Shown: positions 3,261 through 39,181 of the stretch, piece after piece
How positions within the stretch are numbered: the first letter of the stretch is position 1
Layout of the letters: each line of letters begins with the position of its first letter
The notes under the pieces: model-generated
The model's database searches: none
What the model was told of the DNA's origin: nothing
The model's input: the letters and a program-made list of their open reading frames with translations, nothing else
Assembly (NCBI GenBank): GCA_963735375.1
Contig: CAVTKS010000005.1
Coordinates: 256,152-320,151, forward strand
Reading direction: 5' to 3'
Length of the DNA stretch: 64,000 nucleotides
From: an uncultured Acidimicrobiales bacterium
GTDB taxonomy: Bacteria; Actinomycetota; Acidimicrobiia; Acidimicrobiales; VFJN01
Position numbers and translations under genes: made by a program

Positions 3261-5006
3261 ATGGACCAGCCGCTCGACGAGCCAGACCTTCGGTCCTATC
3301 TGGGGATCATTGCCCGCCGCCGTTGGCTGGTGATCCTGACGACGGTGGCCTTCGTCGGCGTGGCCGTCGCCGCGTCTCTGATTCCGGAGCCGACCTACCG
3401 GGTCCGCGCCCAGGTCGCGACCACGGGCTCGAACGACCCCATCGCGATGGTCTTCGGAGCGAACGACTCAGTCGACCTCGAGCGCCAGGCGTCAAGCCAG
3501 TTCGCGTTCATCGGATCAGCCACCATGAAAGGCCACGTCGCCCGCGCCTACAACGGGACGCTCCCGGACGGAGAGGTCTGGCGAGTCACCACGGCAGAGG
3601 TGTCGCGTGGTGACGCAACGAAGACCAGCGGCATCGTCGAACTCTCGCTGCTGTCGTCCGACCCCGCAGCGGCGACGGACCTCGTCAACGTGTACGCGGA
3701 CACTTACGTCGAGGTCCGCAGGGCTGACGACCAGGAGATGCTGCTCACCACGAAGCAGCGCCTGCAGGGGTTGCTGAGCGAGGTCGAGGGCGAGATCGCC
3801 GAGGTACGGGCCCCGCTGGAGGAGATCGATGCCCGCATCGCAGCCGGCGACGGCGATCCGACCTTCTTGAGGTTGGAGCGCGACAACAAGGCGGCTGACC
3901 TGGATCCCGTGCTCGAGCCGCTTCTGGCCGAGGCGTCAGGCATTCGCACGGAGCTCGGTGATCTGAACCTCGGTGTGGAGCTGGCGACAGGCGGCGGTGC
4001 CGAGGTCATCGGTTATGCGTGGGTTCCCGACGTGCCGGTCAGCCCGAACGTACCCCTCAACCTGGCGATCGGCCTCGTGTTCGGCCTCTTCCTGGGTGCG
4101 GCGTTCGCCTTCATCCGCGACTACTTCGACGACTCGGTGAAGACCAAGGAGATGGTCGATCGCGTCACTGGCGTGTCGACATTGGGGCTCATCCCCAAGC
4201 TCGAGGGCGGCACCGACCTCGTCACCGTCACGCACCCGTCGGCGCCGGCGGCCGAGGCGTTCCGCCTGCTGCGCACGTCGGTCAAGTTCCTGGGCGTCGA
4301 GCGACAGGTACGTGTCGTCCAGGTCACCAGCCCGTCGCCCGGCGAGGGCAAGACCATGGTGGCGGTCAACCTGGCCGTCGCGTTCGCGCAGTCCGGCGAC
4401 CGGGTCGTGCTCGTCGGCGGCGACCTGCGTCGCCCGCGCATGGAAGAGGTCGTCGACGTCCCTCTCACGCCGGGCCTCACGGCGGTGCTCATCGGCGACG
4501 TGACGCTGCCGCAGGCGATCCAGTCGGCGCCGGCGGTGCCCAACCTGTCGGTTCTCCCGGCCGGGTACCCGCCGCCCAACCCGTCCGAGCTGCTCAGTGG
4601 CGAGCGTGCCCGCCGACTGATGGACGTCCTCGGGCAGACGTACGACGTGGTCGTCATCGACTGCCCGCCGGTGCTGCCAGTGACCGACTCGCTGGTGATC
4701 GCCCGCATGGCCGACACCACCCTGCTGGTCACGTCGGCCAACAAGACGTCCAAGCGCAGCCTGACCCGCGCCGTCGAGCTGCTCCGGCAGGTCGATGCCC
4801 CGCTCGTCGGCACGGTCCTCAACAGCCTGTCGGCCGACGAGACGTTCAGCGGCGAGCCGTATCGCTACGAGACGGTGTCCAAGCCGGCCGCTCGGCAGGG
4901 CGGTCGTCGCGGCCAGGAGAACAACGGCAAGGCTCGTCGACGGGACGACGAGGGCGATCCCGACGCCGAATGGGATCCTGTCGGCCCACCCCAGGCCAGG
5001 AGCTGA
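3261..5006 (+). CDS. Polysaccharide co-polymerase (Wzz domain) fused to a BY-kinase tyrosine autokinase
   Basis: N-terminal TM segment plus a coiled-coil periplasmic region. Walker A is SPSPGEGKTMVAVNLA, Walker A' is VVLVGGDLRRP and Walker B is VVVIDCPPVLPVTDS. The C-terminus carries PYRY tyrosines. Confidence 0.85.
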   Translation: MDQPLDEPDLRSYLGIIARRRWLVILTTVAFVGVAVAASLIPEPTYRVRAQVATTGSNDPIAMVFGANDSVDLERQASSQFAFIGSATMKGHVARAYNGTLPDGEVWRVTTAEVSRGDATKTSGIVELSLLSSDPAAATDLVNVYADTYVEVRRADDQEMLLTTKQRLQGLLSEVEGEIAEVRAPLEEIDARIAAGDGDPTFLRLERDNKAADLDPVLEPLLAEASGIRTELGDLNLGVELATGGGAEVIGYAWVPDVPVSPNVPLNLAIGLVFGLFLGAAFAFIRDYFDDSVKTKEMVDRVTGVSTLGLIPKLEGGTDLVTVTHPSAPAAEAFRLLRTSVKFLGVERQVRVVQVTSPSPGEGKTMVAVNLAVAFAQSGDRVVLVGGDLRRPRMEEVVDVPLTPGLTAVLIGDVTLPQAIQSAPAVPNLSVLPAGYPPPNPSELLSGERARRLMDVLGQTYDVVVIDCPPVLPVTDSLVIARMADTTLLVTSANKTSKRSLTRAVELLRQVDAPLVGTVLNSLSADETFSGEPYRYETVSKPAARQGGRRGQENNGKARRRDDEGDPDAEWDPVGPPQARS

Positions 5007-5051
5007 CCGCTCCAACTTAAGCGCGCAGGTATCAACTTTCCTGAGCGGGGG

Positions 5052-5057
5052 TATCCT
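5052..5057 (+). promoter_or_regulatory. Candidate -10 hexamer TATCCT exactly 6 nt upstream of the clpB ATG (leaderless-type promoter)
   Basis: The sequence reads TATCCT-GCTCTC-ATG. The same 10-mer TATCCTGCTC precedes the purL start at 18288. Confidence 0.4.
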
Positions 5058-5063
5058 GCTCTC

Positions 5064-7544
<2,481 letters not shown>

Positions 7545-7619
7545 CGGGAAGGTAGATTCAAGCTCGGCCTGCCGCCGGTCACGTCGAAGGGTCGCTCATC
7601 TCGCCCGGCTCAAGCGGCC

Positions 7620-8675
7620 TCATGGCGCGCCGTGGGTCCGGCCTACGGCGGGGAGGCGCCGTCCCGACTCGTTCGGCTGCCTGGTGACGATCTCCTCGGG
7701 ATACCCGAACTCGTCGAGCAAGCTGGCCGTCGCCGCCAGAACAGCGGTTGGGACAGGGACATGAATGTCGTTGTGTCGGTGGAACTCTGCGTCTGACAGC
7801 GAGGCCCGCCGCGCTTGATCGGCCGAACCGCGCGCGTCGACGAAACCCTGCGAGGCCTTTTGGTTGTAGCCCTCACGACTTCGGTAGATGTAGTGGTTGA
7901 GCACGAGGCGAGGCTTGCGATCAGGCGTCACGAACGAGCCATAGACTCGGCGGCCACCTGCCGTTCGTGCGAGACCGCCGCGGCGGTAATAGAGGTTGTG
8001 AGAGTTGCGATAGGCGCGGACCATGGCGGGGCGGGCGAGCACCTTGACGTGGTAGCACGGCTCGGCATCCGCGCGGTCGAACGCCTCGGTGATGAGCCCC
8101 GTCGGTACGACCTCGTGCCCGGAGCTCCCGTAGTAGCGCCAGTTCACGCCGACCGCCGGCCAGCGACCCGCCGATCGCAGGGTCTCGAGAAGGGCCCCGG
8201 GGGAAGCCTCTACGAGGAATTCGTCGGCATCGAAGAACGCCACCCACTCATTGGCGCGACCGAAGCGCGTGAGAAAGTCGATGTTGCTCGACGGGGACGC
8301 GGGAATCGTCGGCCACGGGATGTACGTGACGAGCCCTCGCTCGACGAACGGTGCGATCACACGGTCGATCGCGTCGGTGCTGTTGTTGTCGTAGACGTAG
8401 ACGTGCTCGATGCCGAGGTTCAGGTGATGGGCGAGCCACTCGGGCAGGAAGCGCGCCTCGTCCTTGACGCGGATCATGGCCGCGAGAAAGTGCGTGTCCG
8501 ACGGGCCAGACACGTCGTCGCATTTGATATGGCCCGCGACAGGGCTGGCGTAGTAGGCGTTCTGCACCGTGAACAGGGCAGCCCGAAGCAGTCGATTGCG
8601 CTTGACGTACGCCCGCAGCGACCCCATCGGCCCACCTCTCGTTCGTTTCCCGTACTGTCGCCGCGACCCAGCCAA
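7620..8675 (-). CDS. Glycosyltransferase (GT2/GT92-like, DUF23-type)
   Basis: Contains the [26 protein letters not shown] motif and a DxD-like FFDADEF. An alternative start at 8627 (MGSLRAYV) is possible. Confidence 0.7.
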
Positions 8676-10159: not shown

Positions 10160-11383
10160 GTGAGGGTCTGTGTCATCGGGTCGGGCGGCCGCGAGCACGC
10201 GCTCGCCCACGTGCTCGCCCGCACGGCCGACGTGGTCGTGACCCCGGGCAGCCCGGGCATCCCCGGCTCGGTGCCGACACCGCCCGCAGAGATCGACGCG
10301 GACCTCTACGTCGTCGGCCCCGAGGCCCCGCTGGTGGCGGGGCTGGCCGACGAGCTGCGCGTGGCCGGCAGGCTGGTGTTCGGCCCCGGCGCCGACGGGG
10401 CGTGGCTCGAGGGCTCGAAGGCGTGGATGAAAGAGGTGGTCCAGGCCGCCGGTGTGCCGACCGCCCGCTACGCCGCTTTCACCGAGGTCGACCCGGCCGT
10501 CGAGTTCCTGCGCTCGTTGCCGGGGCCCTGGGTCACCAAGACGGACGGCCTGGCGGCGGGCAAGGGCGTGCTGGTCGCGACCTCGCTCGACGAGGCCGTC
10601 GCCGACGTGCGAGCCAAGCTCGCGGGCGAGGCGTTCGGCGACGCCGGCCGCACCGTCGTCGTCGAGGAGGGCATGTCCGGTCCCGAGTTGTCGCTGCTGG
10701 CGGTGTGCGACGGCTCCCGTGCCGTCGCGCTGGCGCCGGCGCAGGACTTCAAGCGGGTCGGCGACGGCGACGTCGGCCCCAACACCGGGGGCATGGGCGC
10801 CTTCTCGCCGGTGCCGGGCGTCGACGACGCGCTCGTCGACGACGTGATGCGCCGGTTCGTGGAGCCCACGCTGGCCGAGCTGCGGCGCCGGGGCATCGAC
10901 TACCGCGGTGTGCTCTACGCCGGCCTGATGCTCACGCCCGACGGGCCCAAGCTGGTCGAGTACAACGTCCGCTTCGGTGACCCCGAGGCGCAGGTGGTGC
11001 TGCCCCGCCTCACGACCGACCTCGCCGAGCTCCTGGCGGCCGCAGCCGCCGGCGACCTGACCAAGGCGCCGACGCCGGCCTTCTCGGCCGACGCCTGCGT
11101 GACCGTCGTGCTGGCCACCGAGGGCTACCCGGCGTCGCCTCGCACCGGCGACGTGATCGACGGCATCGCTGCCGCAGAAGCCGCAGGCGCCACCGTGTTC
11201 TGCGCCGGGGTCGCGCGGAGCAATACCGGCGGCCTGGTCACCGCCGGCGGCCGGGTGATGGCCGTCACCGGCACGGGCGCCACCGTCGCCGACGCCCGCG
11301 ACCACGCCTACCGGGCCGCGGCGCTGATCTCATGGCCCGGCCAACACCACCGTTCCGACATCGCACTGGAGGCTTCACGCTGA
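10160..11383 (+). CDS. purD: Phosphoribosylamine-glycine ligase
   Basis: Contains [17 protein letters not shown] and an ATP-grasp body. The GTG at 10160 follows GGAGGTGG; the track start is 10154. Confidence 0.95.
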
Positions 11384-11847
11384 TGGCTCGCAAGAAGGTC
11401 GCCGTCCTCATGGGATCGGCGAGCGACAAGGACAGGATGGCGCCCGCCGGCGACACGCTGGCCCGCTACGGAATCGAGGCCGACGTGCGCATCATGTCGG
11501 CCCACCGCACCCCGTCCGTGGTGGCCGAGTTCGCGTCGTCGGCCCGCGACAACGGATACGCGGCAATCATCTGCGGCGCGGGCATGGCGGCCCACCTGGC
11601 CGGCGCGGTGGCCGGGCACACGACGCTGCCCGTCATCGGGGTGCCCCTGTCGGGCGGGGCGCTCAACGGCGTCGACGCGCTGTACGCCACGGTGCAGATG
11701 CCCAAGGGCATCCCGGTGGCGACGGTGGCGGTCGACGGCGCGATGAACGCGGCCCTGCTGGCCGTGCAGATGCTGGCCATCGACGACGCCGATCTGGTCG
11801 ACGAACTGGTCCGCCACCGCGACGAGATGGCGCCCAAGCCGGCCTGA
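11383..11847 (+). CDS. purE: 5-(carboxyamino)imidazole ribonucleotide mutase
   Basis: Contains [19 protein letters not shown] and [10 protein letters not shown]. The start overlaps the purD stop (TGATG). Confidence 0.95.
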
Positions 11848-11869
11848 CCCACCGGCCCGCCCACGTCGG

Positions 11870-12362
11870 TCAGGCGAGGGCTGCACGGACGTCGACAAGC
11901 GTGATGCGCGTCGTCAGCTTCAGCACGCCGGCGGAGCGCGGCCGCATAGCCGGACTTCGAGAAGAGCACGATCCTCATGTCGGACGCGATGCGCAGGCCT
12001 GCCTGTCGCAGCGCTGGCACCTTGTAGTCGTCGAGCTCGGAGACGATCGACGCATCCAGCGTCCGTCCTGTCCACTTCGCCTCGCCGACCAACGTGACTC
12101 TCCCCCGGGCGGTGCCGACGATGTCGATCTCCTCGCTCGAGCGTTCACCTCGTCGGCGCAGCGAGTTGAGCGACGGGCCCCACCATGCGCCGACCCGGGT
12201 GGCGGACCGACCGAGGTTGGCGCGCACCCATGCCCGGCACCAATCCTCGAAGACGGGAGCGACATGGGCGGCGATCGCCGGCGAGACCTCCGACTGGAAC
12301 AGGTCGTCGCCGCTGAGGCCGGTCTCGAGGTCGATGTGCTCTAGCCCGCTGGGCTCGCTCAC
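11870..12362 (-). CDS. Stand-alone DUF234-type domain protein (PD-(D/E)xK-like) with the frame disrupted near the 3' end
   Basis: Matches the C-terminal module of archaeal-type ATPase/DUF234 proteins ([16 protein letters not shown]...[19 protein letters not shown]). As written the ORF runs on to 11466, antisense through purE. A one-base shift at about 11905-11912 instead gives [12 protein letters not shown]-stop at 11870, 22 nt from the purE stop. The GTG start overlaps the upstream stop by 4 bp. Confidence 0.6.
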
Positions 12363-13021
12363 GAACTACCCGGATGCACCGGGTCGCCGCGCTCCAGGGC
12401 CATCGCCAGCCACGCACCAAACCGCTTGAGCCCGGCGACGTTCGAGTCGACCGGCCACTCGGGGTCGGGACGGGCGACGACGAGGCGGATCATCTCGGCC
12501 AGGACGGGCCGACTGAACCCGCTGTCCTTGATGGCGGCGTCGGTGAGCATCGCCTCGAGGTCGAAGTGCTGGGCGAGCGCGTGGACATCGGCCAGGTCGC
12601 GAGTCTGCACGCGACCGAACAGGGCCACGACCTTGTTGGCGGCCAACTCTCGTGGAGACAGCGTCGGGCCGAGGGAAGTCGTTGTGGTGGGCCACACGAT
12701 GGCGTCTCGGCCGAGGTCGACCTCGAACTGGCTGCGGCGCGCTCGGCCGGCGGTCACAGTCATCGACACAAAGCCGGACGAGCGGCGGGAGACGACGACG
12801 TCGAAGCCCGCCGCTCGCAGCGCGTCCGCCACCGCATCGCCCGCCCTCGCGACGTCGACCTTCTCAGCTGTGAACGCGTCGATGTCGCGTGTCGGTCGTG
12901 GCGACAGGTTCGAGGCGACCAGAGCCGCACCACCAGCGAGGTGGAAGCCCCAGCGGCGGGTCGTGGCGAGCACGATCGTGGCGACGCGGCGCTGGACCCG
13001 TGTGAGCCCACTTGTTCTCAC
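12359..13021 (-). CDS. Nucleotidyltransferase toxin, AbiEii/AbiGii (DUF1814, MenT-like) family
   Basis: NTase motif [25 protein letters not shown] and the later [20 protein letters not shown] motif. The GTG at 13021 overlaps the upstream stop (GTGA). The track ORF extends to 13309 in Arg/Pro-rich junk. Confidence 0.8.
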
Positions 13022-13494
13022 GAGAGGCCGGCGACCATCTCGGCGACGGGCTCGCGCAGGTGCCGGGCGACCGGGACGTCGGGCCACAGGGCGACCAGCT
13101 CGTCCGGGTCGATCCAGATGCGGATGTCGGCGGGGGTGCCCTCGTCGAGCACCTGCGCGTACGCGCCCGCCCGCTGCTCTCGATCGCGGAGGTCGCGTGG
13201 GCCCTGGCGAGGGGTCCAGTCGAGGCGGTTGGGCAACGTGACGACGCGGTCGGCCGTAACGATGGGGGTCCATCCGCCCTCGGGCAACTCGATCGTTCGG
13301 CCACGCCACTCGCCGTAGGTGCGGGTGGGGCCGGAGCGCGTGGCGGCGATGCGGGCCAGAACGGCAGCAGCGGGACCCGTCGGCTGGCGGCGGCCGGCCT
13401 CCCAGGCGGCCACTGCTGGTTGAGTCACGCCGAGCAGGGCCGCCAGGTCGGCCTGGCTGAGCCCGGTCAACTCTCGGATCTCGCGCGGCGTCAT
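13018..13494 (-). CDS. XRE-family HTH protein with a C-terminal extension (putative cognate antitoxin)
   Basis: Contains the HTH MTPREIRELTGLSQADLAALLGVTQPAVAAWEAGRRQP followed by about 100 aa of unknown domain. Lies immediately upstream of, and coupled to, the AbiEii gene. Confidence 0.75.
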   Translation of the reverse strand: MTPREIRELTGLSQADLAALLGVTQPAVAAWEAGRRQPTGPAAAVLARIAATRSGPTRTYGEWRGRTIELPEGGWTPIVTADRVVTLPNRLDWTPRQGPRDLRDREQRAGAYAQVLDEGTPADIRIWIDPDELVALWPDVPVARHLREPVAEMVAGLS

Positions 13495-13511
13495 GTCGTT
13501 ATCATAACGAC
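13495..13511. promoter_or_regulatory. 17-bp perfect palindrome GTCGTTAT-C-ATAACGAC carrying divergent -10-like hexamers (TATGAT toward the HTH gene, TATCAT toward purB)
   Basis: Read directly. On the minus strand TATGAT is followed by 6 nt and then the HTH ATG. The element is AT-rich in a GC-rich background. Confidence 0.5.
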
Positions 13512-13552
13512 CGGTGTCGCCGTTGCCCGGAACCACCGGCGAGAATGGGGGC

Positions 13553-14977
13553 GTGAAACCCGTGCTGCCCGACGTGCTCGCCTCCCGCTATGCGAGCCAG
13601 CCGATGGTCGAGCTGTGGTCGCCCGAGCGCAAGGTGCGGCTCGAGCGCGAGCTGTGGGTCGCGGTGATGGCGGCCCAGCGGGACCTGGGCGTCGACATCC
13701 CGGCCGAGGCCATCGACGACTACCGGGCGGTGATCGACACGGTCGACCTCGGCTCGATCGAGGCCCGCGAGCGCGTCACCCGCCATGACGTCAAGGCCCG
13801 CATCGAGGAGTTCTCCGCCCTCGCCGGTCACGAGCACGCCCACAAGGGCATGACCTCGCGCGACCTCACCGAGAACGTCGAGCAGCTGCAGGTCCGCCTC
13901 GCGCTCGAGCTGGTGCGCGATCGCATGGTCACCGGGCTGGCTCGGCTGGCCGAGCGTGCGGCCGAGTACGCCACGCTGGTCATGGCCGGACGCAGCCACA
14001 ACGTCGCCGCCCAGGCCACGACCCTCGGCAAGCGGTTCGCCAACGCGGGCGAGGAGCTGCTGCAGGCCTACGGCCGGGTCGAGGACCTGCTGGCCCGCTA
14101 TCCGCTGCGCGGCATCAAGGGCCCGGTCGGCACCCAGCAGGACCAGCTCGACCTGCTCGACGGCGACGCCGCCAAGGTCGACCGGCTGGAGCGGGCGGTG
14201 CTCGAGCACCTGGGGTTCACGGGCGCGCTCACCAACGTGGGGCAGGTGTACCCACGCTCGCTGGACTTCGACGTGGTCGCCGCGCTCGTCCAGGCGACCG
14301 CGGGGCCCTCCAGCCTGGCCACGACGATCCGTCTCATGGCCGGCCACGAGCTGGTCACCGAGGGGTTCGCCCCCGGCCAGGTCGGCAGCTCGGCCATGCC
14401 GCACAAGATGAACACCCGCTCGGCCGAGCGGGTCAACGGGCTGGCGGTGGTGGTGCGGGGCTACCTGTCGATGGCCTCCGAGCTCGCGGGCGACCAGTGG
14501 AACGAGGGCGACGTGTCGTGCTCGGTCGTCCGGCGCGTCGCTCTGCCCGGCGCGTTCCTCGCCACCGACGGCCTGTTCGAGACGTTCCTGTCGGTGCTCG
14601 ACGGCTTCGGCGCCTACCCGGCGGTGATCGAGCGGGAGCTCGACCGGTACCTGCCCTTCCTCGCCACGACCAAGGTGCTCATGGCCGCGGTGCGCAACGG
14701 CGTCGGGCGCGAGCAGGCGCACGAGGCCATCAAGCAGCACGCCGTCGCCGTCGCCCTGGCGCTGCGCGAGGGGGCGTCGGGCAACGACCTGGCCGACCGC
14801 CTGGCCGGCGACGAGCGCCTGGGGCTCGACCGGGCGACGATCGACGCCGTCCTGGCCGACCGGGTCGGCTTCGTGGGCACGGCACCTCACCAGGTAGCGG
14901 CATTCGTTCACCAGGTCGAGGCGATAGCCGCCGACCATCCCGACGCCGCCCGCTACCGTCCCGAACCGATCCTGTAG
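13553..14977 (+). CDS. purB: Adenylosuccinate lyase
   Basis: Fumarate-lyase signature GSSAMPHKMNTRSAE. The GTG at 13553 follows GGGGGC; the track ORF starts at 13514. Confidence 0.95.
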   Translation: MKPVLPDVLASRYASQPMVELWSPERKVRLERELWVAVMAAQRDLGVDIPAEAIDDYRAVIDTVDLGSIEARERVTRHDVKARIEEFSALAGHEHAHKGMTSRDLTENVEQLQVRLALELVRDRMVTGLARLAERAAEYATLVMAGRSHNVAAQATTLGKRFANAGEELLQAYGRVEDLLARYPLRGIKGPVGTQQDQLDLLDGDAAKVDRLERAVLEHLGFTGALTNVGQVYPRSLDFDVVAALVQATAGPSSLATTIRLMAGHELVTEGFAPGQVGSSAMPHKMNTRSAERVNGLAVVVRGYLSMASELAGDQWNEGDVSCSVVRRVALPGAFLATDGLFETFLSVLDGFGAYPAVIERELDRYLPFLATTKVLMAAVRNGVGREQAHEAIKQHAVAVALALREGASGNDLADRLAGDERLGLDRATIDAVLADRVGFVGTAPHQVAAFVHQVEAIAADHPDAARYRPEPIL

Positions 14978-15025: not shown

Positions 15026-15928
15026 ATGACCGACCTCGGTCTGCCCCACGTCCACTCCGGCAAGGTCCGCGAGATCTACGCCGTCGACGGCGACAGGCTG
15101 CTCATGGTCACCAGCGATCGCATCTCGGCGTTCGACGTGGTGATGGACGAGCCGATCCCGCACAAGGGCCGCGTCCTCACCGCCATGTCGGCGTTCTGGT
15201 TCGACCTGTTCGCCGACGTCGTCACCGGGCACCTGCTGTCGACCGACGTGGCCGACCTCCCGCCGGTCGTGCAGAAGGTGGCCAACCAGGCCGACCTGGC
15301 CGGCCGGGTCATGCTCACCCGCCGGGCCGACATGTTGCCGGTCGAGTGCATCGTGCGCGGCTACATCACGGGCTCGGCGTGGAAGGAGTACAGCAAGGCC
15401 GGCACGATGCACGGCGCGGCGTTGCCCGCCGACCTGCAGGAGTCCGACCGGCTGCCCGAGCCCGTGTTCACCCCGTCGACCAAGGCCGAGGTGGGCGGCA
15501 AGGACGAGAACATCTCGTTCGACGCGGCCGCGCAACTGGTGGGCGAGCCGCTGGCGGCCAAGGTGCGTGACGTGTCGCTCGAGCTGTACCTGCGGGGCGC
15601 CGAGTGGGCCCGCGAGCGGGGGATCATCATCGCCGACACCAAGTTCGAGCTCGGCCTCGTCGACGGCGAGCTCGTGCTGTGCGACGAGGTGCTGACGCCC
15701 GACTCGTCGCGCTTCTGGCCGACAGACGCCTGGCAGCCGGGGACGACGCCACCCTCGTTCGACAAGCAGCCGGTGCGCGACTACCTCGACGGGCTCGACT
15801 GGGACAAGACGCCGCCGCCACCGCCGTTGCCCGACGACGTCGTGACCGCGACGAGCGACCGCTACATCGAGGCGTATGAACGCATCACCGGCCGGTCGTT
15901 CGCCGACTGGCCGGGCGTCGGTGGCTGA
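15026..15928 (+). CDS. purC: Phosphoribosylaminoimidazole-succinocarboxamide synthase
   Basis: Contains GKVREIYAV, IIIADTKFELG and TPDSSRFWP. Confidence 0.95.
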   Translation: MTDLGLPHVHSGKVREIYAVDGDRLLMVTSDRISAFDVVMDEPIPHKGRVLTAMSAFWFDLFADVVTGHLLSTDVADLPPVVQKVANQADLAGRVMLTRRADMLPVECIVRGYITGSAWKEYSKAGTMHGAALPADLQESDRLPEPVFTPSTKAEVGGKDENISFDAAAQLVGEPLAAKVRDVSLELYLRGAEWARERGIIIADTKFELGLVDGELVLCDEVLTPDSSRFWPTDAWQPGTTPPSFDKQPVRDYLDGLDWDKTPPPPPLPDDVVTATSDRYIEAYERITGRSFADWPGVGG

Positions 15929-16768
15929 CATCGGCGACCCGGACGACCACCACCCAGGCCCGGCGGCCGGCGACCAGTTCCCGATCAAGGCCGGGCATCG
16001 TCAGGAGGTCTGGGACCTGCGCCTCGACTGGGGCACCGACGGCCTGGTCGCCGTCGCCGACGGTGCGGCCGCTGTCGTCGTGGTCGACGTGCTGCGCTTC
16101 ACGACCGCCGTGTCGGTCGCCGTCGGCCGCGGCGCCGTCGTGCTGCCGTACGTCTGGGCCGCCGGTGACGCCGCCCGGGCCTACGCGGCCCGCCACGACG
16201 CCGAGCTCGCCGGCCGCCGCGAGCACGGGGACTGGTCGCTGTCGCCCACCGACCTCGCCGAGCTTCCGCCGGGCTCCCGCCTCGTGCTGCCGTCGCCCAA
16301 CGGGTCGGCGCTGGCGTTCGGGGCCCAGGACGATGTTCCCGACGCCATCGTGCTGGCCGGCTGCCTGCGCAACGCCTCCGCGGTGGCCGCGGTCGCCGGC
16401 GCACGCCCCGGGCCGGTGGTGGTCGTCGCCGCCGGCGAGCGCTGGCGCGGCAACCTCGGCCCGTTGCGCCCGTCGGTCGAGGACCTGCTCGGGGCGGGAG
16501 CGGTGCTGCGGGCGCTCGTCGACGTCGCCGGGCGCCCGGCCGACTCTGCCTCGCCCGAGGCCCGGGCCGCCATCGCCGCCTTCGACGCCGCCCGCGGCGA
16601 GCTCGGCGCCTGGCTGGCCGGATCCGCGTCGGGCGCGAGCTGATCGAGATCGGCTTCGGCGACGACGTCGAGGCAGCGGCCGTCCTCGACGCCGACGACG
16701 TCGCCCCCGTCCTCGACGGGCGGGCCTTCACGGGGGTCGCGCCCGGCGCCGCCCGCCATCTACGCTGA
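15921..16768 (+). pseudogene. 2-phosphosulfolactate phosphatase (ComB) family gene with a frame disruption near 16633
   Basis: Contains VVVVDVLRFTTAVSVAV typical of the ComB family. The ORF stops at 16643, but the expected C-terminus (RELIEIGFGDDVEAAAVLDADDVAPVLDG) continues in the -1 frame to a TGA at 16766-16768, 4 nt before purS. Confidence 0.7.
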
Positions 16769-38880: not shown

Positions 38881-38956
38881 TGGTGGTCGGGACCGGCGTC
38901 GATCCGGTGACCTTCCGCTTTTCAGGCGGACGCTCTGCCAACTGAGCTACCCGACC
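38881..38956 (-). tRNA. tRNA-Phe (anticodon GAA), CCA encoded
   Basis: The reverse complement GGTCGGGTAGCTCAGTTGGCAGAGCGTCCGCCTGAAAAGCGGAAGGTCACCGGATCGACGCCGGTCCCGACCACCA folds as a cloverleaf with anticodon loop CTGAAAA. Confidence 0.95.
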
Positions 38957-39015
38957 GTGCCTGCCACCCTTGCGAGCGGTGAGGCTGTCCTTCGCCCCCG
39001 GGGAGAGAGCGAAGA

Positions 39016-39093
39016 TGGCGGTCCCGACGGGATTTGAACCCGCGGCCTCCGGCTTGACAGGCCGGCGTGCACTCCAAACTGCACCACGGGACC
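39016..39093 (-). tRNA. tRNA-Asp (anticodon GTC), CCA encoded
   Basis: The reverse complement GGTCCCGTGGTGCAG...CCGGCCTGTCAAGCCGG...GGTTCAAATCCCGTCGGGACCGCCA has anticodon loop CTGTCAA. Confidence 0.95.
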
Positions 39094-39108
39094 GTGATCT
39101 TGGCGACG

Positions 39109-39181
39109 CACCCCCAACGGGATTCGAACCCGTGTTACCGCCTTGAAAGGGCGGCGTCCTAGGCCACTGGACGATGGGGGC
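39109..39181 (-). tRNA. tRNA-Glu (anticodon TTC), CCA not encoded
   Basis: The reverse complement GCCCCCATCGTCCAGTGGCCTAGGACGCCGCCCTTTCAAGGCGGTAACACGGGTTCGAATCCCGTTGGGGGTG has anticodon loop CTTTCAA. Confidence 0.95.

Follow-up and report, generated by a model that had tools for sequence, protein, structure and literature searches.

Nucleotidyltransferases of the DUF1814 family, to which AbiEii and the MenT proteins belong, are described by four sequence motifs (PMC7450476) and are the toxins of modules whose antitoxins are unrelated to each other, namely the COG5340 proteins AbiEi, MenA3 and MenA4, the COG4861 protein MenA2, the small MenA1, and JHP932 (PMC7450476). AbiE is autoregulated through inverted repeats (PMC7319586). 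In MenT1 residue T39 of the T39-R40-D41 sequence is auto-phosphorylated when the antitoxin binds (PMC11375011), the equivalent residues being S78 in MenT3 and T65 in AbiEii (bioRxiv 10.64898/2026.01.19.700257). Modules in which abiEii is combined with a gene for a helix-turn-helix (HTH) protein of the XRE type (abiEii-HTH_XRE) or with higA (abiEii-higA) have been counted bioinformatically in P. aeruginosa genomes and left unclassified (PMC9424990). The locus considered here lies in a 64-kb stretch of DNA from an uncultured Acidimicrobiales bacterium (contig CAVTKS010000005.1, positions 256,152 to 320,151; 'the window' in what follows) and holds two genes, A and B, for an XRE HTH protein and a short nucleotidyltransferase of this family, set between purE and purB of a purine biosynthesis cluster and followed by a third open reading frame (ORF), C.

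The three ORFs are consecutive on the minus strand of 11466-13536 of the window. They had been taken, in an earlier reading made from the letters of the window alone (the sequence-only reading), for one translationally coupled system of three components, in view of the GTGA at both junctions, i.e. 4-bp overlaps at 13018-13021 (A/B) and 12359-12362 (B/C). The ORFs and their overlaps are as described there, and Pfam matches agree with the assignment of the flanking plus-strand genes as purE and purB. However, the proposed three-gene cassette is a two-gene toxin-antitoxin-like pair plus the broken remnant of an unrelated gene; a single three-component system was not borne out, the three genes co-occurring only in the window (where the third is a relic) and in two of the fetched loci, L011 (where it is a separate gene) and L001 (where a scrap of it is left). 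The functional unit is probably a two-gene, autoregulated module of the toxin-antitoxin type with a DUF1814 toxin, the third ORF being a relic outside the module. This conclusion is reached because A and B recur together in the pur cluster and away from it, with the same palindrome at their promoter end and with correlated divergence. The elements of the locus are as follows.

13553..14977, plus strand: purB (adenylosuccinate lyase), with Lyase_1 and ADSL_C matches in Pfam, divergent from gene A
13495..13511: palindrome, read from the sequence, presumed operator/promoter of the A-B operon
13018..13494, minus strand: gene A, 158 aa, XRE HTH and C-terminal domain of approximately 100 aa, presumed antitoxin and autorepressor
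12359..13021, minus strand: gene B, 220 aa, short nucleotidyltransferase of the DUF1814/AbiEii/MenT type, presumed toxin
11870..12362, minus strand: gene C relic, remnant of a gene for an ATPase_2, winged HTH (wHTH) and DUF234 protein
11466..11869, minus strand: read-through tail of the frameshifted C ORF, antisense to purE and not part of the coding sequence of the cassette
11332..11847, plus strand: purE (5-aminoimidazole ribonucleotide (AIR) carboxylase), PF00731 with E 2e-55, convergent with gene C

Gene B extends from a GTG at 13021 to the TGA stop at 12361-12359, and the 220-residue product matches the AbiEii family (PF08843) with an E value of 2e-14 (54.4 bits against a gathering cut-off of 22.5) over profile positions 15-186 of 238; the AbiEii models of PADLOC match it weakly (best E 4e-7). 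The four motifs of the DUF1814/AbiEii/MenT family (I, hG[GS]x9-13Dh[DE]h; II; III, with a Lys; IV, with an Asp; PMC7450476) are all found, motif I as GG30-31...T44-R45-D46-I-D48, motif II as VDLGRD106, motif III as K130..A..R137 and motif IV as R-D142-LA-D145, and their residues are invariant or nearly so in 27 homologues. Thus, the assignment of B as an AbiEii/MenT-type nucleotidyltransferase in the sequence-only reading, along with the motifs quoted in its favour (GGAAL...RPTRDIDAF and K..AL..R...RDLAD), was confirmed by Pfam and by the alignment. T44, conserved at >=90%, is found two residues ahead of the first motif-I Asp, where the family has its phosphoacceptor Ser or Thr, an assignment that is read from the sequence pattern only. 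A-B resembles MenAT1 of M. tuberculosis (Rv0078B/Rv0078A; PMC10435456, PMC11375011) in the short DUF1814 toxin, in the T-R-D loop, the motif III Lys and the motif IV Asp, as well as in the upstream position of an antitoxin gene that is not of the COG5340 type, and the binding and induced auto-phosphorylation of that system are proposed here also for A-B.

B is approximately 70 residues shorter than a typical AbiEii. When its profile was compared with PDB sequences, MenT1 was not reached, and the closest solved structure was 4O8S/4OK0 (E 5e-8), which we take to be JHP933 of H. pylori, the PDB table naming the molecule only as 'Putative'. To our knowledge, no XRE HTH has been described for JHP932/JHP933. 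The Helicobacter pylori pair is like A-B in having a toxin of similar size (232 aa) and an overlapping upstream gene (PMC4125220, PMC7450476), but JHP933, unlike B, is found in the plasticity zone of a proteobacterium. A subclade of B proteins departs from the motif pattern: in L018 (~8013-8636), L019 (~1476-2099) and L026 (858-1481, minus) both motif-I aspartates are replaced (RPTRA[IV]N vs RPTRDID), while the A and B ORFs are intact and the ratio of nonsynonymous to synonymous substitution rates (dN/dS) of B is 0.14-0.21 within the group.

Gene A starts with the ATG at 13494, which is the start of all of its homologues, and ends with the TGA at 13020-13018. Its N-terminus (approximately residues 1-52) is an XRE-type HTH (HTH_3, E 5e-11) and, as had been stated from the sequence, the C-terminal part is an unassigned domain of approximately 100 aa. 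In Pfam, NCBIfam and PADLOC the protein matched XRE-type HTH models only, with no AbiEi model among them, in agreement with the earlier view that the antitoxin candidate is not of the COG5340 type; the COG5340/AbiEi antitoxin that marks AbiE sensu stricto is therefore not what A provides. The likeness to AbiE (AbiEi/AbiEii of Streptococcus agalactiae and Lactococcus, and MenAT3/4) lies in the two-gene operon, with the antitoxin first and a DUF1814 toxin, and in an antitoxin built of an N-terminal DNA-binding and a C-terminal neutralizing domain, the neutralizing role being presumed for A. However, the AbiE antitoxin is a COG5340 protein with a winged HTH, whereas A has an XRE HTH and a C-terminal domain that is unrelated by sequence. 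MenA1, in turn, is small and devoid of a DNA-binding domain (PMC7450476), whereas A is a protein of 158 aa in which the XRE HTH is joined to a different, unannotated domain of approximately 100 aa. The P. aeruginosa abiEii-HTH_XRE modules, none of them characterized, share with A-B the combination of an AbiEii and an XRE HTH protein, a likeness that concerns the gene pairing. Because the features of the toxin family are present and that of the AbiE antitoxin is absent, A-B is most aptly seen as a MenAT/AbiE-family variant in which an undescribed partner domain is fused to an XRE HTH.

The C-terminal domain of A is highly conserved among the homologues. The AlphaFold2 (AF2) model of the full-length protein (predicted local distance difference test score, pLDDT, 94; predicted template modelling score, pTM, 0.88) comprises the HTH, a beta-hairpin and a helical C-terminal part. 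A Foldseek comparison of this model with PDB and BFVD returned HTH matches only. In PDB sequence comparisons, the profile built from full-length A and that built from its C-terminal domain found nothing beyond the HTH, and the latter did not reach MenA1. Modelled on its own, the C-terminal domain gave a poor AF2 model (pLDDT 54), which was left out of the fold search. On the other hand, a profile of the domain retrieved, at E <=1e-3, 442 representatives from 1.84 billion (clusters at 50% identity), many of which are stand-alone proteins of 100-135 aa, others having an N-terminal extension of approximately 55-70 aa; those sampled matched no Pfam or NCBIfam family. P0206, a protein of 106 aa consisting of the A-type C-terminal domain, is encoded 5 nt upstream of a gene for a 211-aa AbiEii; genes for A-type domains are directly upstream of AbiEii-like genes in L022, L023 and L024, a stand-alone version is paired with an AbiEii gene in L106, and the same arrangement is found in a Rhodococcus plasmid and in a Curtobacterium plasmid, where the domain (weaker match, E 5e-5) belongs to a 'hypothetical protein' upstream of an 'AbiEii/AbiGii toxin family protein'. 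In the metagenomic protein P0211 (280 aa) an A-type domain (residues 6-90) and an AbiEii nucleotidyltransferase domain (residues 122-245) are found in one chain, which is either a natural fusion or the product of adjacent genes merged by a frameshift. Since family members, with or without the HTH, are encoded immediately ahead of short AbiEii genes, A probably has its toxin-neutralizing domain in the C-terminal part, which is a conserved partner of this short nucleotidyltransferase subfamily. In L106 a gene of 246 codons (2234-2974) with a faint match to PP2C_2 (Ser/Thr phosphatase) diverges from the pair of stand-alone domain and AbiEii genes, a neighbour that would be of relevance if neutralization were to consist in reversible phosphorylation of the toxin.

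Directly abutting the ATG of gene A is a perfect 17-bp palindrome, GTCGTTAT-G-ATAACGAC (13495-13511), with the core CGTTAT-N-ATAACG. The inverted-repeat scan, at the settings used, missed this 8+1+8 arrangement, which was confirmed by a pattern search: the core is unique in the window, with 0 occurrences expected by chance, and it is found once each in 16/16 of the fetched locus records that bear an A of this level of similarity and in 0/89 of the other loci. It is kept also outside the pur cluster and in L001, which has a Uma2 gene between A and purB, while the central base varies (G, C, T or A), as expected for two half-sites. By taking into account these observations, the palindrome is inferred to be an operator bound by A. 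In both orientations it contains a TATNAT hexamer resembling a -10 element, placed six bases ahead of the ATG of A, which, by analogy with actinobacterial promoter architecture, would fit the -10 element of a leaderless A transcript. A scan of 11700-13700 for sigma-70 promoters and intrinsic terminators returned nothing, the consensus being a poor fit to high-GC Actinomycetota. On the other side of the palindrome, purB likely starts at the GTG at 13553 (VKPVLPDVLASRYAS) rather than at the first in-frame GTG at 13514, because the start region AATGGGGGCGTGAAGCCC is conserved across loci. The palindrome lies 41-43 nt from this start, and in eight loci (window, L002, L003, L013, L014, L016, L018 and L020) 42-43 nt separate the core from the purB start codon, the spacer sequence being variable, so that the palindrome may possibly serve as a shared bidirectional promoter/operator for A-B and purB. 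With the antitoxin gene first, the A/B overlap and the palindrome at the promoter, the pair has the organization of a toxin-antitoxin operon (type II/VII), the operator role being predicted.

The distribution of the pair was determined with a scan based on an alignment of 13 B sequences, the 27-sequence alignment being too diverse for this use, which yielded 15 loci by taking one genome per species, and with a separate metagenome sample chosen only by purB similarity; the pair was placed by tblastn of the window proteins against all fetched loci. In every context of a B homologue that was examined an HTH_3 gene of approximately 150-170 codons is directly upstream of an AbiEii gene of approximately 210-227 codons, and the 4-bp A/B overlap recurs in L001, L003 and L011. 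The pair is found between purB and purE in L001-L003, L011-L016 and L018-L021, and in the purB-selected L026 (L017 being the same contig as L003), that is, in at least 13 distinct loci from metagenome-assembled genomes (MAGs) of the Acidimicrobiales type. Outside the pur cluster it is found beside ABC transporter genes in L004/L005, and beside genes for an AMP-ligase and a DcuA/B transporter in L006/L007. The loci that bear the pair have purB 86-94% identical to that of the window, whereas purA-purD-purE-purB-purC are contiguous, with no pair between them, where purB is <=84% identical (L028, L029, L049, L060, L090 and L101). The interruption of an otherwise contiguous purine cluster that had been noted in the window was thus established by the distant relatives. 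Among identities to the window, Spearman correlations are 0.84 for A with purB and 0.90 for A with B. Since the pair is absent where purB is more distant, and since divergence of A tracks that of purB, A-B is, from the sequences compared, an old insertion that entered the purE-purB junction in an ancestor within the Acidimicrobiales and has been mostly vertically inherited thereafter. The earlier view of the cassette as an accessory insertion was therefore correct as far as an insertion is concerned, but the insertion is neither recent nor strain-specific nor universal: L031 (purB 88%) lacks the pair and has a gene for an LPXTG-type surface protein (265-1050) between purE and purB. A recent strain-specific island was considered and rejected, because at least 13 distinct loci have the pair at this position and its divergence tracks purB. 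What occupies the purE-purB junction varies across this lineage. In L001 the gap contains a Uma2-family gene and an AAA_14-DUF4143 gene (4858-5493; 7418-8566), and in L069 (2785-5001) and L076 (3765-5001) it holds a gene for a putative secreted glycoside hydrolase of 404 aa (read by eye) or other ORFs.

Gene C matches DUF234 (PF03008) with E 5e-8 over profile positions 19-91 of 100, and its EEIDIVG...GEAKW residues fall on invariant columns of the homologue alignment, so that the DUF234 assignment of the sequence-only reading holds, as does the statement that the module is here without its usual ATPase. The first ~18 positions of the model, including the FWFRFVFP motif, are missing from the window copy; most homologues extend N-terminally with the conserved FWFRFVFPFQ motif and a winged-helix region. 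The end of the ORF is not at 11870, where it had been placed. The frame holding the DUF234 motifs has no stop there and is open for 298 codons, to 11466, running antisense through purE, and the translation of the tail (11466..11869) has no counterpart in any C homologue. It is the +1 frame that contains the TGA at 11872-11870 and encodes the conserved C-terminus of the homologues, which finish with ...DD.R I.LVDV...L and have a matching ending in the +1 frame of the window.

The nature of the fragment is clarified by L011, a locus of an Acidimicrobiaceae MAG in which B has 77% identity to that of the window. Here, between B and purE and on the same strand, a gene of 482 codons starts 90 nt after B and encodes a protein with ATPase_2, AAA_22/AAA_14 and DUF234 domains. 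DNA homology between the window and this gene begins at ~12332, about 30 nt past the B stop, and the alignment reveals a 1-nt insertion at ~11910 of the window (GACGAC|GCGC vs GACGA-GCGC), which splits the two frames 13 codons ahead of the ancestral stop, TGA 11872-11870. After correction of the frame, window C is 81% identical to residues 330-482 of the L011 protein, the first 329 codons having been lost; an ATPase remnant was sought elsewhere in the 64-kb window and none was found. Thus, of the architecture of ATPase_2 (PF01637) plus DUF234 (PF03008) proteins the window retains the homologue of the C-terminal third: the N-terminal AAA-type ATPase, present in the syntenic L011 orthologue, and the wHTH are missing, and the DUF234 domain is not complete in an intact ORF since the frameshift at ~11910 precedes the conserved RITLVDV end. 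This comparison places the third ORF outside the A-B module and identifies it as what is left, at the 3' end, of about one third of a separate gene for an ATPase-wHTH-DUF234 protein. That C might be a genuine gene for a stand-alone nuclease was considered and rejected, the gene being 5'-truncated and 3'-frameshifted with respect to L011.

The B/C overlap is unique to the window and sits at the deletion junction. No DUF234 gene was found downstream of B in L002-L007, L012-L021 and L026, the full-length form being present only in L011, and the view of C as a third component of the system fails because, among A-B loci, it is only in L011 that DUF234 is found downstream, as a separate gene. In L001 (B 79% identical) a scrap of 54 aa of the ATPase-DUF234 gene is left (residues 263-316), adjoining an unrelated AAA_14-DUF4143 gene on the opposite strand. 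Because L011 has the full-length gene, and the window and L001 have remnants, the ATPase-wHTH-DUF234 gene was present downstream of B in an ancestor of the subgroup and has been decaying independently along different lineages. It was acquired downstream of the A-B pair later than the pair itself, and the GTGA overlap of B and C is a by-product of the 5' deletion in C. The dN/dS values relative to L011 are 0.21 for the C relic, 0.16 for A and 0.14 for B. On longer contigs the closest homologues of the DUF234 fragment (L008, 1435-1989; L009, 4107-4658; L010, 4759-5567) are also short and without an ATPase and, in the unrelated contexts of L008 and L009, homology begins at about residue 298 of the L011 protein, before any codon that could serve as a start; these ORFs may have arisen by decay more than once, or they may represent a genuine short version of the protein.

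The mechanism proposed for the pair is modelled on the characterized members of the family (PMC7450476, PMC10435456, PMC11375011 and PMC7319586). The nucleotidyltransferase B would add nucleotides to the 3' ends of tRNAs, as MenT1, MenT3 and AbiEii do, so blocking translation. The C-terminal domain of A would bind B and neutralize it by sequestration, by induced auto-phosphorylation or by both, and the site of an auto-phosphorylation provoked by A would probably be T44 in the T-R-D loop of B. The XRE HTH of A, as a dimer, would bind CGTTAT-N-ATAACG, overlapping the -10 region and the leaderless start, and repress its own operon.

Four observations weigh against the reading of the locus as a two-gene module with a relic beside it. 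The low dN/dS of C (0.21) indicates either a recent truncation or a fragment that is still under constraint. An assembly error may account for the 1-nt insertion in gene C. In this respect, purA, purB, purC and purD appear to be split by frameshifts in L002 and L020 (MFD nanopore-type MAG contigs), and the frequency of indel errors in some of the compared assemblies bears on the reality of the insertion in the window. Since B is under purifying selection in L018, L019 and L026 despite the lost motif-I aspartates, the pair may be kept there for a role other than that of a toxin. Finally, the C-terminal fold of A is unlike anything solved and its domain-only model is poor, so that the mode of neutralization is inferred by analogy. 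A rival reading is that of the three genes as one system, with a stand-alone DUF234 (PD-(D/E)xK-like) nuclease that would be translationally coupled to the HTH/AbiEii pair and work with it. The GTGA overlap of B and C, the intact D...ExK core residues of C and its dN/dS are in keeping with such a system, and short DUF234-only ORFs do recur in other Acidimicrobiia contigs. However, GTGA taken alone is weak evidence, since in GC-rich genomes a TGA stop often follows a G; the arrangement is found in no other A-B locus examined, no HTH or AbiEii gene is found in the contexts of the C homologues, the syntenic orthologue of L011 is a separate, full-length gene 90 nt after B, and window C has neither the FWFRFVFP start nor its last 13 codons in frame. 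By taking these facts together, a system of three components is very improbable.

The reading as a two-gene toxin-antitoxin-type module must also be set against functions in which toxicity is not the main point. The pair could be a domesticated regulatory module, kept because its operator/-10 region is at the same time the promoter of purB and of the downstream pur genes; A, perhaps with B, would have come to control purine expression once the insertion had severed purB from purE, with toxin activity secondary or lost. The TATNAT hexamers in both orientations, the distance of 42-43 nt between palindrome and purB that is fixed in eight loci despite the varying spacer, the persistence of the pair at this site over a range of 86-94% in purB, and the subclade that has lost the catalytic aspartates of B while both ORFs are under purifying selection speak in favour of this possibility, which is nevertheless unlikely: purB is separated from the palindrome by the Uma2 gene in L001 and by ~420 bp in L012, module and palindrome are also found away from pur genes (L004 and L006), L031 does without the pair, and the scan for sigma-70 consensus promoters, ill-suited as that consensus is to these genomes, detected none. 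A combination may be envisaged in which the C-terminal domain of A is an undescribed antitoxin family and, in addition, the module is domesticated, with the A/B state gating purine biosynthesis through the bidirectional -10 element. If true, such gating would account for the persistence of the pair even in loci where the catalytic aspartates of B are gone, but as a whole we would not expect this combination to hold. It has also been considered that A-B acts mainly in abortive-infection phage defence, as lactococcal AbiE does, rather than as a housekeeping toxin-antitoxin module or regulator. B is homologous to the PADLOC AbiEii models, and the slot downstream of the pair has repeatedly gained genes of the kind found in defence neighbourhoods (ATPase-DUF234, AAA_14-DUF4143 and Uma2). 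On the other hand, the pair has a stable chromosomal position within a core biosynthetic cluster and has diverged in step with this cluster, neither A nor the whole pair matches a catalogued defence system in PADLOC, and no prophage or mobile-element signatures were found at the A-B locus, all of which makes a main role in defence quite doubtful.

With A-B taken as a two-gene module, the C-terminal domain of A would be a candidate for a new antitoxin domain of the tRNA-modifying toxins of the MenT/AbiEii type, found with or without an XRE HTH and, here, with a sharply defined operator. It would provide a fourth or fifth unrelated class of partner with which to test the antitoxin-induced auto-phosphorylation that has been proposed to be universal. 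The fixed site by purB, along with a subclade whose nucleotidyltransferase is disabled and yet constrained, offers a tractable case for the study of the retention or co-option of chromosomal toxin-antitoxin modules. The third ORF also illustrates that a coupled third gene beside a toxin-antitoxin pair can be a deletion scar; in this instance, the apparent end of the ORF had been read across a frameshift.

Two further features of the window were observed at a distance from the pair. An Rfam search over the window found three tRNAs only, all distant from the A-B locus, which form a cluster on the minus strand at 38881-39181 (Phe-GAA, Asp-GTC and Glu-TTC). The gene at 15876-16643, between purC and purS, has orthologues in L001 and L003 for which PF04029 (2-phosphosulfolactate phosphatase family) is the matching family, and its position inside the purine cluster is kept in relatives.

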